Shown here: positions 28,307-46,098 of the stretch, piece after piece
How positions within the stretch are numbered: position 1 is the stretch's first letter
Layout of the letters: each line of letters begins with the position of its first letter
Assembly: GCA_934086145.1 (NCBI GenBank)
Contig: CAKOHV010000002.1
Span: forward strand, 450 to 64,449
Source: an uncultured Bacilli bacterium
Lineage (GTDB): Bacteria > Bacillota_I > Bacilli_A > RF39 > UBA660
Direction of reading: 5' to 3'
DNA length: 64,000 nt
The notes under the pieces: generated by a model
What the model was told of the DNA's origin: nothing
Databases searched by the model: none
The model's input: only the letters and a program-made list of their open reading frames with translations
Made by a program: the position numbers and the translations under genes

Positions 28307-28383
28307 TGGTCGAGAAGACAGGATTTGAACCTGCGACCCCTAGTTCCCAAAACTAGTGCACTACCAAATTGTGCTACTTCTCG
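28307..28383 (-). tRNA. tRNA-Pro (anticodon UGG)
   Basis: The minus strand reads CGAGAAGTAGCACAATTTGGTAGTGCACTAGTTTTGGGAACTAGGGGTCGCAGGTTCAAATCCTGTCTTCTCGACCA. Anticodon loop is TT-TGG-GA and CCA is encoded. Confidence 0.9.
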
Positions 28384-28391
28384 ATAAATAA

Positions 28392-28468
28392 TGGTGCGCC
28401 CAAAGGGAGTCGAACCCCTAACCTTTTGATCCGTAGTCAAACGCTCTATCCAATTGAGCTATGAGCGC
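28392..28468 (-). tRNA. tRNA-Arg (anticodon ACG)
   Basis: Cloverleaf GCGCTCA..AGCTCAATTGGATAGAGC..TTTGA-CTACGGA-TCAAA..GGTTCGACTCC..TGGGCGCACCA, anticodon ACG. Confidence 0.9.
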
Positions 28469-28502
28469 ATATAACTGTGCTTTTTCTCATAAACGCAAAT
28501 AC

Positions 28503-28531
28503 ATTATATCTTTATTTATTGAAAAAAGCAA
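28503..28531 (-). promoter_or_regulatory. Putative promoter of the tRNA-Arg/Pro unit
   Basis: On the minus strand: TTGCTT, 17-nt spacer, TATAAT, about 35 nt upstream of the tRNA-Arg 5' end. Confidence 0.45.
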
Positions 28532-28691
28532 GCTTTTTTTTTAAAAAAGTGCAAAATATCTTCATAATCTTTCAATATTTAAAATAATTATCCCTATTAT
28601 CCCTCTTGACACTTATAGATAAGAAAAAATTTACTCTACCTTTTTATCAACAACTATCACAATTATTATATGAATATGTTTTATTTATTAC

Positions 28692-28718
28692 ACAAAAAAA
28701 ACAAGGAAACCCTTGTTA
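28692..28718 (-). terminator. Rho-independent terminator after the five-tRNA unit
   Basis: On the minus strand: aacaagg-gttt-ccttgtt followed by a T8 run, just 3' of tRNA-Lys. Confidence 0.7.
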
Positions 28719-28729
28719 ATTTTTAAAAA

Positions 28730-28805
28730 TGGTGTCCCGCTGGGGATTTGAACCCCAGACCCTCTGATTAAAAGTCAGATGCTCTACCAACTGAGCTAGC
28801 GGAAC
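28730..28805 (-). tRNA. tRNA-Lys (anticodon UUU)
   Basis: GTTCCGCTAGCTCAGTTGGTAGAGCATCTGA-CTTTTAA-TCAGAGGGTCTGGGGTTCAAATCCCCAGCGGGACACCA. Confidence 0.9.
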
Positions 28806-28812
28806 ATAAGAA

Positions 28813-28888
28813 TGGCTGCCTTGGATGGACTCGAACCATCGGAATGTCAGAGTCAAAGTCTGATGCCTTACCACTTGGCTACAAGGCA
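28813..28888 (-). tRNA. tRNA-Gln (anticodon UUG)
   Basis: TGCCTTGTAGCCAAGTGGTAAGGCATCAGA-CTTTGAC-TCTGA...GGTTCGAGTCCATCCAAGGCAGCCA. Confidence 0.9.
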
Positions 28889-28897
28889 ATACAGAAA

Positions 28898-28981
28898 TGG
28901 TGGGAGGACATGGATTTGAACCATGGAACCCGAAGGAACAGATTTACAGTCTGCCGCGTTTGACCACTTCGCTATCCTCCC
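28898..28981 (-). tRNA. tRNA-Tyr (anticodon GUA), long variable arm
   Basis: GGGAGGATAGCGAAGTGGTCAAACGCGGCAGA-CTGTAAA-TCTGT + variable arm TCCTTCGGGTTC + CATGGTTCAAATCCATGTCCTCCCACCA. Confidence 0.9.
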
Positions 28982-28988
28982 ACATTTA

Positions 28989-29064
28989 TGGTGCCGACAG
29001 AGGGAGTCGAACCCCCAACCTACTGATTACAAGTCAGTTGCGCTGCCAGTTACGCTATGTCGGC
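28989..29064 (-). tRNA. tRNA-Thr (anticodon UGU)
   Basis: GCCGACATAGCGTAACTGGCAGCGCAACTGA-CTTGTAA-TCAGTAGGTTGGGGGTTCGACTCCCTCTGTCGGCACCA. Confidence 0.9.
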
Positions 29065-29070
29065 AAAAAA

Positions 29071-29147
29071 TGGTGGGCGATATAGGACTCGAACCTATGA
29101 CCCCCTGCTTGTAAGGCAGGTGCTCTAACCAACTGAGCTAATCGCCC
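29071..29147 (-). tRNA. tRNA-Val (anticodon UAC)
   Basis: GGGCGATTAGCTCAGTTGGTTAGAGCACCTGC-CTTACAA-GCAGGGGGTCATAGGTTCGAGTCCTATATCGCCCACCA. Confidence 0.9.
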
Positions 29148-29169
29148 ATAACTCCTCTGGACAAGACTA

Positions 29170-29198
29170 AGTATACCAATTATATTGATTATTGTCAA
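29170..29198 (-). promoter_or_regulatory. Promoter of the Val-Thr-Tyr-Gln-Lys tRNA unit
   Basis: On the minus strand: TTGACA (29198-29193), 17-nt spacer, TATACT (29175-29170), about 23 nt upstream of tRNA-Val. Confidence 0.7.
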
Positions 29199-29651
29199 CA
29201 ACTTTTTCTCAATATTTTATATTTTTTCTTAATCTCTATTTTCATCTTATAATCTCTCACAAGACAAATATATTATATTATTAAAATTTCAAAAAGTCCA
29301 ACATTTTTTTACACTTTTTGCAATTTTTTGCATATTTTTCTAAAAAATGTCCTAATAATCCCATTTAAGTTCTATAAATTAGATAAAATAAGTCAAATTA
29401 AGCAACAAAAACTTTATTAATTTATTAAAAAAAACATAAAAAACATTTATTAAAAAATTTAATTGAATCAATATTATTCAAGTTCCAGTATAATTATTTA
29501 AAAATATTATTTCTAAATTAATTAATTTACTTTGTTCATTACAAACTAATACATATATTTATTTTCATAGTAAAAGATAATCAAATATTTTTTACATCAT
29601 AATTAATAATATTTTTAATAAATCATCCTTTTTATATTTCATTATATTTTT

Positions 29652-29680
29652 ACAAAATAAAAACCGCATCAATGATACGA
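29652..29680 (-). terminator. Putative terminator after the Ser-fMet-Asp-Phe tRNA unit
   Basis: On the minus strand: cgtatc-att-gatgcg (6 bp, one G-U) followed by gtttttatttt. Confidence 0.4.
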
Positions 29681-29715
29681 TTTGTATTATACTCGATAAC
29701 GAGTTTTCTTCAAAC

Positions 29716-29791
<76 letters not shown>

Positions 29792-29794
29792 AGA

Positions 29795-29871
29795 TGGCGG
29801 TCCGTACGGGATTCGAACCCGTGATCTTCTGCGTGACAGGCAGACGTCATAGGCCTCTAGACTAACGGACC
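29795..29871 (-). tRNA. tRNA-Asp (anticodon GUC)
   Basis: GGTCCGTTAGTCTAGAGGCCTATGACGTCTGC-CTGTCAC-GCAGAAGATCACGGGTTCGAATCCCGTACGGACCGCCA. Confidence 0.9.
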
Positions 29872-29872
29872 A

Positions 29873-29949
29873 TGGTTGCGGGAGCTGGATTTGGACCAAC
29901 GACCTCCGGGTTATGAGCCCGGCGAGCTACCAGACTGCTCCATCCCGCG
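29873..29949 (-). tRNA. Initiator tRNA-fMet (anticodon CAU)
   Basis: CGCGGGATGGAGCAGTCTGGTAGCTCGCCGGG-CTCATAA-CCCGGAGG... It has the C1:A72 mismatch and three G-C pairs closing the anticodon stem, both initiator hallmarks. Confidence 0.9.
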
Positions 29950-29958
29950 ATAATTTAA

Positions 29959-30050
29959 TGGCGGAGGAAAAGGGATTCGAACCCCTGCGCCGCTCACACG
30001 ACCTTCCGGTTTTCAAGACCGGTCCCTTCAACCAACTTGGGTATTCCTCC
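29959..30050 (-). tRNA. tRNA-Ser (anticodon UGA), long variable arm
   Basis: GGAGGAATACCCAAGTTGGTTGAAGGGACCGGT-CTTGAAA-ACCGG + long variable arm + GGTTCGAATCCCTTTTCCTCCGCCA. Confidence 0.9.
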
Positions 30051-30078
30051 ATGCGCTTCTTTCATCAGCGACAAGTAG

Positions 30079-30108
30079 ATTATAGCACAATATATTTTTA
30101 TATGTCAA
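30079..30108 (-). promoter_or_regulatory. Strong promoter of the Ser-fMet-Asp-Phe tRNA unit
   Basis: On the minus strand: TTGACA (30108-30103), 18-nt spacer ending in TGc, TATAAT (30084-30079). This is an extended -10 about 28 nt upstream of tRNA-Ser. Confidence 0.75.
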
Positions 30109-30316
30109 CAAAAATTAGTAAATTATTTAAATTCCGTATATTTATTTGAAAATTTACTAGATGATCGAACAAAATAAAACTAATAAATCCCCTTTTTAGA
30201 ACAATATTTTTATCTTTTTCCATCCCTATAGTAATATAATATATACTAATAACAATAATTAAACACTCCTTAAAAATAGTACTATACAAAAAATCTTACT
30301 CATATATAACATACGT

Positions 30317-30372
30317 ATAATAAATACATAATATACACAATAAATACATAACATACATATAATAAATATATC
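30317..30372. repeat. Imperfect 20-22-nt tandem repeat (AATAAATACATAAYATACA-like, 3 copies)
   Basis: Read directly: aataaatacataatatacac / aataaatacataacatacatat / aataaatatatcatatt, in the divergent tRNA promoter spacer. Confidence 0.6.
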
Positions 30373-30536
30373 ATATTAGACACTATCTATAAAATTAATA
30401 TAATTTTTACCCACAAAAGATCATTTTAATTATTAATCTTTCTCCATAATAATTTGTATTTATTTATAATTGTAAGCAATTTTATCACTAAAAAATCGAA
30501 AAATCACATTATCTTTAAATTTTTTCACAAAAACTA

Positions 30537-30565
30537 TTGCAAAACCAAAAAAAATGCGCTATACT
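30537..30565 (+). promoter_or_regulatory. Promoter of tRNA-Leu
   Basis: TTGCAA (30537-30542), 17-nt spacer, TATACT (30560-30565), about 31 nt upstream of the tRNA. Confidence 0.7.
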
Positions 30566-30596
30566 CAAATAGTCTTATGAAAAGACGCAAGTGCTT

Positions 30597-30685
30597 GCCC
30601 AAGTGGCGGAATAGGTAGACGCACAGGACTTAAAATCCTGCGAGATTTAACCCTCGTGCCGGTTCAAGTCCGGCCTTGGGCACCA
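30597..30685 (+). tRNA. tRNA-Leu (anticodon UAA), long variable arm
   Basis: GCCCAAGTGGCGGAATAGGTAGACGCACAGGA-CTTAAAA-TCCTG + variable arm + CCGGTTCAAGTCCGGCCTTGGGCACCA. Confidence 0.9.
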
Positions 30686-42003: not shown

Positions 42004-43260
42004 CTATTGAAATTTAATTCTTTCATTTACATAGTCAACTACTTCATTAAGTTTTAAAGTAATTTGTTCCATAGTATCTCTATCTCTTAAAGTAACTATA
42101 CCATTATTAATAGACTCATCATCAACAGTTAAACACCATGGTGTTCCACAAGCATCGGCTCTTCTATACCTCTTACCAATACTACCAGATTCATCATAGC
42201 TCGTCATAAAGTTTTTACTTAACATATTATAAATTTCTCCAGCCTTTTCACTATGATATTTTTTTACAAGTGGCAAGACACATACTTTATAAGGAGCAAA
42301 ATATGGAATAAATTTCATAACCTCACGAGTTTCACCATTTTCAAGCGTCTCCTCAGTATAACTATTATCTAAAATTGCCAGCGTTAATTTATCACATCCA
42401 ATAGTAGATTCAATTATATATGGAATAAACTTTTCATTAGTTTCTGAATCTAAGTATTCTTGATAATTACCAGAATATTCTTGATGTCTTCCTAAATCAT
42501 AATTAGTTCTATTATGAGTACCATTAACTTCTCCCCATCCAAATACATACTTATACTCAATATACAGGCTTCTTTAGCATAATGAGCTAATTTTTCATGA
42601 TCATGAAACCTTAATTTGCCTTCACTAATTCCCAAATTCATAAAATATTTCTTCGCATAATCTTTAAAATATGCATAAAGTTCACTATCAGCGCCTTCTT
42701 TACAGAACGTTTGATATTCCATTTGTTCAAATTCAATTGTTCTAAAAGTAAAGTTTCCAGGGGTTATTTCATTTCGAAATGCTTTACCAATTTGTCCTAT
42801 ACTAAATGGTAGCTTAGCACGCATAGTTCTTTGGACATTTAAAAAGTTAACATATTCCCCTTGGGCATTTTCTGGTCTTAAATAAACTTTATTTTTACCT
42901 TCTTCAGTAACTCCCATATAAGTCTCAAACATTAAATTAAATTGTCTAATATCCGTATAATCGCTCTTTCCACACTTTGGACATGGTATTTTATGTTCTC
43001 TAATATAAACCATCATTTCTTCTTGACTCATTCCATCAGCATGCGCATTTGCATCAAAATCGCTGCATCTACTTCATAAGCATTAGGTCTTTCTTGAATA
43101 AAGCGTTTACGCCAAGAATCCTTAATATTATTTTTAAGTCTTGAACCTAATGGACCATAAACCAGGTATTAGCAAAACCACCATATATTTCACTTCCTTG
43201 GAATATAAATCCATATTTTTTACAATAATTTACTAATTTTTCCATTGTTAATTCTGCCAT
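42004..43260 (-). pseudogene. glyQS: Glycine--tRNA ligase (glyQS, alpha2 type), disrupted
   Basis: Homologous segments lie in three frames. They are MAELTMEKLVNYCKKYGFIFQGSEIYGGFANTW, then YGPLGSRLKNNIKDSWRKRFIQERPNAYEVDAAILM, then ADGMSQEEM...FNLMFETYMGV...AHYAKEA, then YIEYKYVFGWGEVNGTHNRTNYDLGRHQEYSG...C-terminal anticodon-binding domain. The lesions are -1 shifts near 43160 and 42562 and a deletion of about 40 codons near 43050-43060. Confidence 0.85.
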
Positions 43261-43261
43261 A

Positions 43262-43792
43262 TTAAACCTCCAAATATTTTATTAAATCTTCTTTCTTATT
43301 AAATATTTTTATATAATTCAAAATAGAATAATCATTAAATTTATCTTCGATAAGTCTTGTAATAAACTTAATCAAATCACTATAATATCCATCTTGATTA
43401 TAAACAATTATCTCTTTTGTACTTTCAATCGTTCGATTATCCTCTAACATACTGAATAGCTCAGCCAAACTTCCAGTCCCACCCGGAAGAATAAGAACTT
43501 TAGAAGCATCATTATAAATTTTAGCTTCTCTTTCAAAAGTATTTTTTACATAAGTGCAATCAACATTAAATAAGCTTGTATCTTCATGATATAATTTTAA
43601 TGTATAAATCTTGATATTTCTATGCGCATCATTAAAATTACTTAGTATTTTTCCAAACATACCTTCACTTGCAATACCGCCCATAACTAAATCATAGCCA
43701 CAACGAGCTAAGGCCTTACTTATAAAATCAGCATCTTCAATATACTTTTTATCTATCTCTGAATGAGAAGAACAACCTATAAATATTTTCAT
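43262..43792 (-). CDS. LOG-family (TIGR00730) Rossmann-fold nucleotide-binding protein
   Basis: 176 aa with the PGGxGTxxE-type motif LPGGTGSLAELF. The stop lies 1 nt upstream of the glyQS ATG. Confidence 0.75.
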   Translation of the reverse strand: MKIFIGCSSHSEIDKKYIEDADFISKALARCGYDLVMGGIASEGMFGKILSNFNDAHRNIKIYTLKLYHEDTSLFNVDCTYVKNTFEREAKIYNDASKVLILPGGTGSLAELFSMLEDNRTIESTKEIIVYNQDGYYSDLIKFITRLIEDKFNDYSILNYIKIFNKKEDLIKYLEV

Positions 43793-43810
43793 CCTATCAC
43801 CTTCTAAAAA

Positions 43811-43938
43811 TAAAAAAACTCCTAGAATATGTAAGGACGAATTAATATCCGCGGTTCCACCTTACTTATTCTAGAAGAATCAGCTCTTATCTATACTGCT
43901 CAGGGTTTTCCACACCCGTCATCACACTTATTGAAATC
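43811..43938 (-). promoter_or_regulatory. T-box riboswitch-like leader (Gly/U73-type acceptor-binding bulge) with U-run terminator
   Basis: The minus strand reads AAGUAAGGUGGAACCGCGG-auauuaauu-CGUCCUUAC (plus 43828-43866). The T-box consensus is AAUUAGGGUGGNACCGCG...CGUCCCU. The UGGA bulge predicts a U73 tRNA. A 15-bp hairpin (43822-43836 with 43860-43874) is followed by a U7 run (43812-43818). A K-turn-like GUGAUGA...CUGAGC hairpin lies upstream. Confidence 0.7.
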
Positions 43939-43967
43939 AATATAACCCATTTTATACAACTTGTCAA
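43939..43967 (-). promoter_or_regulatory. Putative promoter upstream of the T-box-like leader
   Basis: On the minus strand: TTGACA (43967-43962), 17-nt spacer, TATATT (43944-43939). Confidence 0.5.
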
Positions 43968-44458
43968 CAAAGAACAAAAGACAAATAAAGTTGTCCTTGA
44001 AATCTCACGATTTCAAATTTCTACTTCACAGACACTCTACTGAGTCTTCTCCATAGACTTAAAATCCGATAGTCGCTACCGTACATATTTTTTTATTTTA
44101 TCTTTTTGTTTTTCTTTTTTTATTTAATTATTTATTATTATTTTTGCTAGTTTTTCTATATACATTTTCCCCCAACTAGTTTTTTAATAATATGGTTTTT
44201 ATCATACAATATTGTTGTTCATATAGCAATATATTTTTACACAATTTTTAATTATTTTTTAATGTAATAGATGAACTTTCCTATAAGAAAAAAATTTCCC
44301 CAAAAAACTTTAAAAATGACTTGTTCTAAATGTGGGAGAGAGACAATGGAATATAAAAATGATAATGAATAATCACCATCACTTTTTTGCATGAGTAGAT
44401 TTATTTACCTACCCTTTTTTGTTTATCTACTAAAAACGCCTAATATATAAAAAAACAT

Positions 44459-45010
44459 TTATTCTTTAAAACCATAAATACCATGTATCTTTTCTAAATC
44501 ATCGTTACTTAACTGAACAACTTCCCACTTCTTTTGCTCATTTTTCATAACTTTAAAATTAATATTATATTCAACCATTGCTGTACTTTCATTCATCTTT
44601 TCAAGCTTATAATTTAAAAATAAATTTTTATCATACTTGTTATCACTATTATAAAATTTTTCACTAGCTTCATTTAAATACTTAACAGCTTCTACTTGCG
44701 GGGTATATAAATCAATTACTCTAATTCTTGTCACGACTGTCGCTTTATCCCCATCATAGGTTTCATTAACAATATTATAAGTTAATGTTTTATATTGTTT
44801 TAATAAAATCTTTTTATAGAGTTCTTTTTGTTCATCCGTAAAATCTTCACTATCTACATAATCATTTAATTCGTTAACAATACTCTCGTCATTATTAATA
44901 TAGCCATTTAAATATTCGACAACTGCATCTTTAGCCGTTAAATTCTTATTACATCCTAATAAAATTAACATTATTATTAAAAATAAACAACTTTTTATAG
45001 CCTTTTTCAT
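44459..45010 (-). CDS. Lipoprotein (hypothetical)
   Basis: Signal peptide with lipobox LILLGC, then a 160-aa soluble domain. Confidence 0.65.
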   Translation of the reverse strand: MKKAIKSCLFLIIMLILLGCNKNLTAKDAVVEYLNGYINNDESIVNELNDYVDSEDFTDEQKELYKKILLKQYKTLTYNIVNETYDGDKATVVTRIRVIDLYTPQVEAVKYLNEASEKFYNSDNKYDKNLFLNYKLEKMNESTAMVEYNINFKVMKNEQKKWEVVQLSNDDLEKIHGIYGFKE

Positions 45011-45093
45011 ATTACCTCGCCTCTACAACTAGTATTGTTTATAATTAACTTTTTATACATATTATGCTAAAATACTAAGAGGAAGTGATAAAA

Positions 45094-46098
45094 GTGAAAA
45101 AAACTATTTTAACAGGCTTACGTCCAACTGGCAATCTTCATTTAGGCCACCTTTTTGGAGCTGGCCAAAATTATGTCAAATTACAAAATGATTATGATTT
45201 TTACCTAGAAATTGCGGATGTTCAAGCTTTAACAGATAATTTCAACAATCCAGAAAAGGTTAGAAAAAATGTTAGAGAAATTACAGCAGATCTTTTAGCT
45301 ATCGGTCTTGATCCAACAAAAGTTAATTTTTTTATCCAATCAAAAATTCCCGAAATTGCAGAGTTGACTGTTTATTATTCTAACTTAGTAACAGTTGCTA
45401 GACTTCAAAGAAATCCGACTGTCAAAGCAGAAATAGCTCAAAAGAAGGAACTTTTTGGTGATAATGGCGAAAGCATTACTTATGGCTTCTTAGGCTACCC
45501 TGTATCCCAAGCAGCTGATATTACGTGCTTTGGCGGTGAATTAATTCCTGTCGGCGATGACCAACTACCATTAATTGAACAATGTCGTGAAATAGTTCGT
45601 AAATTTAATAGCATTTATGGTAATGTTTTAACTGAGCCAGAACCATACTTATCTAAAACAACTCGTATCAAAGGTCTTGATGGCAATGAAAAAATGGGCA
45701 AAAGCCTTGGTAACGCCGTTTATTTAATTGACGATGAAGAAACAATTAAGAAAAAAATAATGGGGGCTATCACTGACCCTAATAAAATTAAAAAGGATGA
45801 TAAAGCTAACCCTGACGTTTGTATGGTTTATTACTATCATAAATTAGTCAATGATGAAGAAAATGTAAAACATATTTGCCAAGAATGCCAAGAAGGAAAA
45901 CGTGGCTGTGTTAAATGTAAAACCGAACTAATTGCCAAAATGAACAAATTTTTAAAACCAATCAAAGAACGTCGTCAAAAATACGAAGAAAATCCTGAGT
46001 TAATTGACCAAGTCTTAGAAAAAGGTACTAAAAAAGCTCAACTTAAGGCTAAAGAAGAAATGAAAAAAATTAAAAAAGCAATGAAAATCGATTATTAA
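45094..46098 (+). CDS. trpS: Tryptophan--tRNA ligase (Cys-rich, putative Fe-S-binding subtype)
   Basis: Class I motifs TGNLHLGH (HIGH) and KMGKS (KMSKS). It carries the Cys cluster C-x18-C-x2-C-x6-C-x2-C. GTG at 45094 lies 8 nt after AGAGGAAG. Confidence 0.9.
   Translation: MKKTILTGLRPTGNLHLGHLFGAGQNYVKLQNDYDFYLEIADVQALTDNFNNPEKVRKNVREITADLLAIGLDPTKVNFFIQSKIPEIAELTVYYSNLVTVARLQRNPTVKAEIAQKKELFGDNGESITYGFLGYPVSQAADITCFGGELIPVGDDQLPLIEQCREIVRKFNSIYGNVLTEPEPYLSKTTRIKGLDGNEKMGKSLGNAVYLIDDEETIKKKIMGAITDPNKIKKDDKANPDVCMVYYYHKLVNDEENVKHICQECQEGKRGCVKCKTELIAKMNKFLKPIKERRQKYEENPELIDQVLEKGTKKAQLKAKEEMKKIKKAMKIDY

Follow-up and report, generated by a model that had tools for sequence, protein, structure and literature searches.

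The locus examined here raises the question of how a T-box riboswitch can switch when its antiterminator lies inside its own terminator hairpin. It is the leader of a LOG/TIGR00730-family gene and a broken glyQS gene, found in a 64-kb stretch of contig CAKOHV010000002.1 from an uncultured Bacilli bacterium; this whole stretch is called the window, and the leader, LOG and glyQS coordinates are all on its minus strand. A first reading made from the letters alone (the sequence-only reading) had noticed the arrangement and left two options, a decayed riboswitch or a truncated-Stem I variant with altered logic. We consider it about 60% probable that the leader is an intact T-box of ~120 nucleotides (nt) that senses tRNA-Gly, belongs to a compact type without earlier description and functions in transcription attenuation by strand exchange on Stem III; the estimate covers this whole explanation, the mechanism included. 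The predicted terminator is formed without use of the 3' strands of antiterminator helices A1 and A2. Its downstream arm pairs with Stem III nt and with the first A of a conserved AA dinucleotide, and so extends A1 to the U-tract. The parts of the element are listed below in the order of transcription (lengths of helices in base pairs, bp).

43939-43967, minus strand: sigma-70-type promoter, TTGACA at 43967-43962, 17-nt spacer, TATATT at 43944-43939; 11 of 12 positions match, the best site within 1.3 kb
43897-43926, minus strand: minimal Stem I, with C-stem UGU/GCA (43926-24 with 43899-97)
43923-19 with 43901-00, minus strand: kink-turn (K-turn) with GAU bulge and G.A/A.G pairs; a C.U pair (43918 with 43902) adjoins it
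43917-14 with 43906-03, minus strand: upper helix of 4 bp, GGGU/ACCC; all four pairs covary
43913-07, minus strand: apical loop of 7 nt, GUGGAAA
43908-43912, minus strand: specifier U-GGA-A (GGA at 43911-43909), a glycine codon with an invariant U before it and a purine after it
43881-43896, minus strand: single-stranded linker of 16 nt, with conserved UAUA (43895-92) and purine-rich GAUAAGAGCUG (43891-81) ending in an invariant G
43868-43880, minus strand: Stem III, AUUCU (43880-76), loop UCU (43875-73), AGAAU (43872-68); -0.1 kcal/mol alone
43866-43867, minus strand: conserved AA between Stem III and A1, counted with the purine string of the discriminator; kept in 100 of 103 leaders, with no variation in alignment A2
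43831-43867, minus strand: T-box core AAGUAAGGUGGAACCGCGGAUAUUAAUUCGUCCUUAC, from the RF00230 alignment
43831-43865, minus strand: discriminator core ('antiterminator'), GUAAGG-UGGAACC-GCGGAU-AUUA-AUUCGU-CCUUAC, from cmscan and RNAfold
43865-60 with 43836-31, minus strand: helix A1, GUAAGG/CCUUAC; covaries in alignments A2 and A4
43859-53, minus strand: T-box bulge UGGAACC, invariant in alignment A2
43852-47 with 43842-37, minus strand: helix A2, GCGGAU/AUUCGU, beginning with a G.U wobble, loop AUUA; covaries in alignments A2 and A4
43819-43877, minus strand: intrinsic terminator hairpin enclosing the discriminator; outer helix CUUCUAGAAUA (43877-67) with UAUUCUAGGAG (43829-19), 11 pairs
43866 with 43830, minus strand: A.A mismatch between the outer helix and A1
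43806-43818, minus strand: U-tract U7-A-U5, directly after the last terminator pair and present in all relatives

Rfam 15 was scanned with cmscan. At gathering thresholds the whole window yielded tRNAs only. Below the RF00230 (T-box) gathering score of 93 bits, a significant match was found at 43830-44062 on the minus strand (43.7 bits, E = 2.6e-8, 701 nt searched), without a canonical Stem I, as had been anticipated from the letters. In this match 43869-43830 are aligned to model positions 181-219, the T-box/antiterminator part, with high posterior probability, which bears out the close consensus match of the core that had been noticed by eye. Relatives also score low (35-39 bits, and 35-44 bits for the family overall), because the Stem I and Stem II positions of the model are missing. 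A covariance model (R1) trained on 21 leaders, the window copy among them, matches the window exactly once, at 43811-43928 on the minus strand, with 122.5 bits; this is the top score in the family, though that of a training member. The element had been placed at 43811-44090. The part at 43811-43928 stands, and the part at 43968-44090 falls away, being upstream of the promoter and different among the closest relatives. The TTGACA-17-TATATT promoter itself was confirmed at 43967-43939 and would start transcription at ~43932, a few nt before the K-turn stem. By eye, a -35/-10-like pair stands at the same place in L001, L003, L012-L016, L020, L035, L036 and L042; promoter-like sites were not enriched there (8 found versus 9.0 expected).

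One explanation for the odd layout would be a canonical T-box whose long Stem I lies upstream (43968-44062) and whose conventional terminator was overlooked. The best cmscan alignment indeed begins at 44062, with a hairpin at ~44016-43997 taken as the Stem II region. It has 66 Stem I positions deleted and ~90 nt inserted, in sequence that is upstream of the promoter and not conserved, and we rejected it as spurious. This explanation is also at odds with the intergenic space of relatives (only 172-176 nt), with the placement of the entire element in 43811-43928 by R1, and with the promoter-like site recurring in relatives, beyond which the upstream region lies. No complement to CGUCCUUAC was found by eye in the downstream sequence, and hence no conventional terminator partner of the kind that would have spoken against the sequence-only reading. 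We regard a canonical T-box here as very improbable. The upstream region contains a terminator-like hairpin (44081-44067, minus strand) followed by GAUUUU and a perfect 8-bp hairpin UUGAAAUC-GUGA-GAUUUCAA (~44016-43997, minus strand), both upstream of the T-box promoter. The hairpins at 44081-43997 probably end the upstream gene (44459-45010), and cmscan mistook this region for Stem I/II.

The lower stem of the hairpin comprises 17 pairs and one mismatch (43819-43836 with 43860-43877). The 15-bp stem with one mismatch that had been described (43822-43836 with 43860-43874) is real but understated, as three more pairs follow (U43875.G43821, U43876-A43820 and C43877-G43819), and it is only with these pairs counted that the stem is directly followed by U7 (43818-43812). 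The claim that the core sits inside the terminator hairpin agrees with the RNAfold minimum-energy structure, which retains A1, the 7-nt bulge and A2 within the hairpin. In this form A43867 pairs with U43829. The window leader folds with -31.7 kcal/mol, compared to -19.2 kcal/mol with the 3' arm withheld, a gap of 12.5 kcal/mol. In most leaders the terminator form is favored over the fold preceding the 3' arm by ~10-16 kcal/mol (range 5.5-16.3).

Relatives came from two sources. A genome scan gave 34 loci in uncultured gut/rumen metagenome-assembled genomes labelled Bacilli, Mollicutes, Tenericutes, Erysipelotrichaceae or Firmicutes, and a metagenome search with a pattern of K-turn, UAUA and the 5' half of the T-box only gave at least 120 stretches. 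Family leader counts used in this text (94, ~102, 103 and 109) rest on relatives including the metagenome matches listed (at least 120). Alignment A2 was made by MAFFT and not fitted to the model; alignment A4 (29 sequences) was fitted to it. The minimum-energy fold was nested in 22/23 of the first leaders and then in 101/103. Nine of the 11 outer-helix pairs change on both sides in the model-fitted A4 (29 sequences), and diverged versions of this helix include AAGACUCUAAU/AUUAGAGUCUU, AAGACC/GGUCUU and GGAUUCUCUUU/AAAGAGGAUCC. In canonical T-boxes, the A1/A2 3' strands become the 5' strand of the terminator (PMC7583486). All T-boxes were sorted by a single classifier according to the direction in which the CC in the 3' strand of A1 finds its partner, upstream (nested) or downstream (canonical). 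A published glyQS leader sequence usable as control was sought but not found, and T-boxes from IMG/VR served instead: 71 matches to a 14-mer on unrelated contigs were mostly chance, and 8 had a recognisable T-box leader context. The results are as follows.

Family leaders: nested 94, canonical 0; four with odd interiors still have the outer helix; nine were not parsed
Unrelated IMG/VR T-boxes with recognisable leader context: nested 0, canonical 8

The window leader is nested, and its terminator does not exclude the antiterminator through the A1/A2 3' strands. What the terminator fold captures is Stem III: at least five Stem III nt are taken up in 93 of the 94 leaders having this stem. The arms involved can be compared with those of three long-Stem I T-boxes on contigs from the metagenome scan, all of which exceed the Rfam threshold and all of which are nested.

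L096, 5196-5387, plus strand: upstream of a membrane protein gene and ileS
L102, 27-225, minus strand: the contig ends before the downstream gene
L077, 4632-4824, minus strand: upstream of a small unannotated open reading frame and a putative pheS-pheT, assigned by eye
Strands compared in L096 and L102 (Ile), in the order Stem III 5', Stem III 3', matching part of the terminator 3' arm: CAUAG, CUAUG, CAUAG
The same three strands in L077 (Phe): UAUAGU, ACUAUA, UAUAGU
The same three strands in the glycine family: AUUCU, AGAAU, AUUCU

This three-way covariation is the signature predicted for a strand-exchange switch, and we take it as the decisive evidence. As judged from these sequences, the nested terminator is common to several T-box types on related contigs and the minimal Stem I is found in glycine leaders only. 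A further element, L159 (2235-2330, minus strand), is probably also a nested long-Stem I T-box.

The same tRNA-sensing T-box might be controlled in another way, with a bulge-bound tRNA distorting the long nested hairpin or slowing its closure, or with a constitutively leaky terminator and a tRNA complex that acts on pausing, RNA stability or processing. Binding of tRNA to the terminator form is conceivable, as the discriminator does not unfold in either state. Seven leaders without a Stem III hairpin are still nested, and in 45 of 94 minimum-energy folds the terminator form leaves the AA dinucleotide without a partner. However, such control leaves unexplained both the complementarity of the 3' arm to Stem III nt in 93/94 leaders and the covariation across Gly, Ile and Phe T-boxes, and a bulge 17 bp away from the stem base would not be expected to act sterically at the exit channel of RNA polymerase. 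We consider control of this kind unlikely, though it deserves some weight.

Strand exchange on Stem III fits what is known of the discriminator. Stem III with its 5'-RRRxG and 3'-AA purines has been described as an integral part of the discriminator; the purines dock in two minor grooves, that of the duplex between tRNA-NCCA and the bulge and that of helix A2, the purine motif holds the tRNA 3' end, and an antiterminator alone barely binds tRNA when Stem III is absent (PMC7583486). The family shows the same layout. Stem III is flanked by 5'-RRRxG and AA-3' purines and has at least 4 bp in 94 leaders, and the six nt 5' of it are purine-rich with G last in every case. The commonest arms are AUUCU/AGAAU (59 leaders), followed by AUUC/GAAU (19 leaders), and the loop varies in length and sequence; rare compensated variants are AUCU/AGAU, AUUUCU/AGAAAU and AUUCUU/AAGAAU.

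On the basis of the conserved purine motif and its published role in the discriminator (PMC7583486), we propose the following on/off scheme. During transcription, the specifier loop would pair with the anticodon loop of tRNA-Gly through two G-C pairs, with up to 5-6 nt complementary to U33-U34-C35-C36-A37(-A38), and the 3' UCCA of an uncharged tRNA would pair with the bulge UGGA. In the on state, uncharged tRNA-Gly would fasten both Stem III and its purine string to the core, and the emerging 3' arm would lack a partner. This latch would keep the unstable Stem III (-0.1 kcal/mol) from the 3' arm, so that the hairpin at the U-tract fails and RNA polymerase reads into LOG-glyQS. In the off state (tRNA charged or missing), the latch would fail, the 3' arm would take the Stem III strand with a gain of ~12 kcal/mol in the window, extending A1 to the U-tract, and termination would follow. 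The core would stay folded in both states. It is an evenly balanced question whether a whole lineage of uncultured low-GC gut/rumen Bacilli has rewired its T-box in this manner, so that the core never unfolds, strand exchange on Stem III and a purine latch make the decision, and a ~115-nt sensor, lacking both elbow platform and Stem II, recognizes glycine tRNA solely by an anticodon-loop-like kissing hairpin and the tRNA 3' end.

The tRNA would be read by a very small Stem I. A K-turn-like hairpin with GGA followed by A in its loop had been noted, and it was confirmed as GUGAUGA-CGGG-UGUGGAAAA-CCC-UGAGC at 43925-43898. The K-turn (GAUGA ... UGA) stands at the base and is flanked by the covarying C-stem, in which UA and AU exchange in 7/21 and 10/29 sequences and CG and UG also exchange (alignment A2). 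In the upper helix, four of four pairs change on both sides in A2, and the picture in A4 is the same. In L005/L006 the Rfam T-box model puts the K-turn at the base of Stem I and shrinks 78 model positions to 9 nt; the hairpin is therefore homologous to the base of a Stem I that has lost its distal part. The K-turn strands are separated by just 18 nt, the cmscan alignments omit 66-90 positions of Stem I, and the long Stem I with its distal platform of interdigitated T-loops is absent. Across the family the helix above the K-turn has 3-5 bp and the apical loop 5-9 nt. In about 20 leaders (e.g., L021, L032, L035 and L031), the 3' K-turn strand is changed from NGA to NCA or UA (AUCAGC, CUAGC), and non-standard pairs are therefore assumed at the second sheared position of the K-turn.

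The specifier was outside the metagenome search pattern, so neither the glycine codon nor the following purine was selected for; the U before the codon in every parsed leader was built into the parser. The loops of ~102 unique leaders read as follows.

U-GGA-A: 75 leaders
U-GGC-A: 14 leaders
U-GGC-G: 4 leaders
U-GGU-A: 3 leaders
U-GGA-U: 1 leader, the sole parsed exception to the purine rule
Unparsed loops: 5 leaders, showing ...UGUGGA or ...GGAUGG

GGA, GGC and GGU are all glycine codons, and a purine comes next in all parsed leaders but one. The window has GGA+A, in agreement with glyQS; there is no GGC within 43811-43940, just as had been said of the leader. A Trp reading of the invariant UGG was tried and dismissed: in many leaders C or U comes next, which breaks the purine rule; the bulge reads UGGA and not the UGGC asked for by the usual tRNA identity rules; and the gene is glyQS. 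UUGGAA, frequent in specifier loops, is complementary to U33-A38 of the tRNA-Gly(UCC) anticodon loop, which suggests an extended loop-loop contact.

The fourth nt of the bulge gives a second line of identification. The UGGA bulge had been seen to fit a tRNA with U73 (Gly or Cys). Gly is favored by the presence of glyQS as first or second gene downstream in 99/109 loci (among the matches listed) and by a tRNA-Gly(UCC) gene on the family contig L083 (8833-8906), with anticodon loop CUUCCAA and the end ...C-U73-CCA, which matches both specifier and bulge. In the window and in 38 loci, tRNA-Gly was sought without success. The first gene downstream is glyQS in 52 and LOG in 47 of 109 loci (among the matches listed). 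The genes in the window are as follows.

43262-43792, minus strand: intact LOG/TIGR00730-family gene (PF03641), 176 aa, ATG at 43792; the first regulated gene
~43803-43796, minus strand: LOG Shine-Dalgarno sequence AAGGUGAU, outside the hairpin, beyond the U-tract and unpaired in folds
42004-43260, minus strand: glyQS pseudogene (class II glycyl-tRNA synthetase, GlyRS) with three deletions, of 1 nt near 43163 and near 42563 and of 115 nt near 43049

The position of the Shine-Dalgarno sequence speaks to the idea of a translational T-box that sequesters it, as in ileS of Actinobacteria with a short Stem I. Elsewhere, T-boxes that combine a short Stem I with a specifier in the apical loop mostly control translation initiation (PMC10482949). 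In the window, however, U7-A-U5 stands directly 3' of the hairpin, the Shine-Dalgarno sequence of LOG is beyond the U-tract and unpaired, and the relatives are alike. Translational control can hardly be credited.

The glyQS gene had been called dead, and comparison to the intact relative L012 (91% nucleotide identity) supports this: two 1-nt deletions and one 115-nt deletion disable it. These three deletions, together with an Rfam score under half of the gathering threshold, would fit a decayed relic, a T-box remnant left after glyQS loss with only a constitutive terminator or attenuator remaining. The relatives contradict it. Contigs with LOG homologues carry intact glyQS of 456-459 aa behind the same short leader (intergenic only 172-176 nt in L003 and L005), and the differences between the window leader and its closest relatives keep all pairings, none being disruptive. 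R1 matches 29 genome/assembly loci and, among the matches listed, 120/120 metagenome loci (52-120 bits, full length or to the contig end), and it recovers members outside its training set (L018, L019, L024, L031, L039 and L041). The core GGTGGAACC stands upstream of LOG in 22 of the 34 loci from the genome scan. In alignment A2, pairing holds for 94.6% of the cells and 11 pairs show two-sided changes, with 0-5 of 500 shuffles reaching the observed values (five measures); in A4, 21 pairs change on both sides. Over 100 distinct sequences show covarying helices together with a conserved K-turn, specifier, bulge and purine string, and the design is shared by more than 100 gut and rumen bacterial sequences. 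Decay of the riboswitch is therefore most improbable. The other option left by the sequence-only reading, a truncated Stem I with altered logic, is the one supported, by the covariation of K-turn and hairpin, the U-GGN-purine loop and the nested count (94/94 versus 0/8). Two family members have unusual bulges, AGAAACC in L039 (859-968) and the 6-nt UGGACC in L041 (1374-1485), for which normal pairing with the tRNA 3' end is not expected; these copies may be decaying or may be assembly errors.

No second GlyRS gene was found in the 64-kb window; the genome therefore encodes one elsewhere, or the assembly is faulty here. With the leader intact over a dead glyQS, either the pseudogenisation is recent or the leader is retained for the LOG gene. 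LOG stands between the glycine T-box and glyQS in 47/109 family loci, which would place a LOG-family protein under joint control with GlyRS by tRNA-Gly charging.

T-boxes have been divided into four classes by Stem I/II architecture: class I has a long Stem I and Stem II; class II (glycine) has a long Stem I and no Stem II; class III has a short Stem I with apical-loop specifier and requires Stem II; and class IV has an intermediate Stem I and a Stem II like that of class III. Classes I and II generally control transcription termination, and classes III and IV mostly translation initiation (PMC10482949). On sequence grounds, the leaders described here join a class III-like Stem I to the class II absence of Stem II and add an intrinsic terminator.

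With the class II glyQS T-boxes (Bacillus subtilis, Geobacillus kaustophilus, Oceanobacillus iheyensis; RF00230) they share the glycine specifier followed by a purine, the UGGA for U73, the K-turn at the base of Stem I, the lack of Stem II or IIA/B, a single-stranded linker, Stem III with RRRxG and AA, the G.U wobble at the start of helix A2 and an intrinsic terminator before glyQS. They differ in that the distal Stem I is gone, and with it the specifier internal loop, the AG bulge and the distal loop used for stacking on the tRNA elbow, the codon is in an apical loop of 5-9 nt, the terminator encloses A1/A2, the usual specifier is GGA and not GGC, and Rfam scores are 35-44 bits against 93.

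The class III 'ultrashort Stem I' T-boxes (Nocardia farcinica and Mycobacterium ileS; Sherwood et al. 2015, as presented in PMC7583486 and PMC10482949) likewise have a short Stem I without elbow platform and an apical-loop specifier. They need a Stem II S-turn and a IIA/B pseudoknot for tRNA binding, mostly control translation by a Shine-Dalgarno sequestrator, are isoleucine-specific, and occur in Actinobacteria. The window element, in contrast, has no Stem II, the 16-nt linker being too short for Stem II or a IIA/B pseudoknot; it has an intrinsic terminator and no Shine-Dalgarno sequestrator, is glycine-specific, and belongs to low-GC uncultured Bacilli/'Mollicutes'-like gut and rumen bacteria.

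As in the canonical expression platform, the default terminator is far more stable, the ligand state would be held by tRNA and the decision would fall before the U-tract. Unlike it, the nt that change partners would be those of Stem III and the first A of the AA, with A1/A2 persisting; L077, L096 and L102 are alike in this. Rfam 15 contains no family for the element beyond the sub-threshold RF00230. In the literature searched, with subscription journals partly covered and an earlier mention possible, we found no description of a short-Stem I glycine T-box, of a short-Stem I T-box lacking Stem II, or of a terminator enclosing the antiterminator.

Several points weigh against a functional tRNA-Gly T-box with strand exchange on Stem III. 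The binding of tRNA, the discrimination of its charge and the readthrough have been deduced from sequence. The minimum-energy folds reflect thermodynamics and take no account of folding kinetics during transcription, the controls are few (8 T-boxes), and the A4 covariation comes from an alignment fitted to the model. Stem III is nearly invariant in the glycine family, and support for its pairing comes from a few compensated variants and from the paralogues. In the seven leaders lacking a Stem III hairpin (e.g., L011, L024 and L037), a bare purine string must act; they carry a conserved AAUGAAG(G)AC, also the 5' arm of the terminator, and could be a simpler version of the same logic. Coaxial extension of A1 might mimic Stem III in geometry, in which case tRNA binding and the extension need not exclude each other. 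Transcriptional T-boxes generally need a long Stem I platform, and a truncated Stem I barely binds tRNA without Stem II (PMC7583486), which makes sufficiently fast recruitment of tRNA by this hairpin less easily explained. GGC/GCC pairing has been argued to be strong enough for glycine T-boxes to forgo Stem II (PMC7583486); GGA, the commonest specifier here, gives a weaker A-U third pair than GGC.

T-boxes are a model of RNA-RNA recognition and a proposed antibiotic target. The family contradicts statements in reviews that a long Stem I platform is needed, that a truncated Stem I needs Stem II, and that switching tears the antiterminator apart. If the proposed mechanism is true, T-boxes can work co-transcriptionally without the elbow contact, and antiterminator disruption is not universal. 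The element would then be the smallest natural T-box, suited to structural work and to use as a compact sensor of amino acid or tRNA charging, and would offer a test of how much elbow contact and Stem II matter for kinetics. It would also argue, independently, that the decision of the discriminator is carried by Stem III with its purine string and not by A1/A2 alone. RF00230-based surveys under-count T-boxes in uncultured Bacilli.

Other features of the window concern translation genes. The trpS gene (45085-46098, plus strand) has ~75 nt of intergenic sequence upstream with no T-box match; therefore, not every aminoacyl-tRNA synthetase gene here is T-box-controlled. Twelve tRNA genes (Pro, Arg, Lys, Gln, Tyr, Thr, Val, Phe, Asp, Met, Ser and Leu, with no tRNA-Gly) are clustered at 28307-30685, and a closely similar tRNA cluster is present on the relative contig L086.

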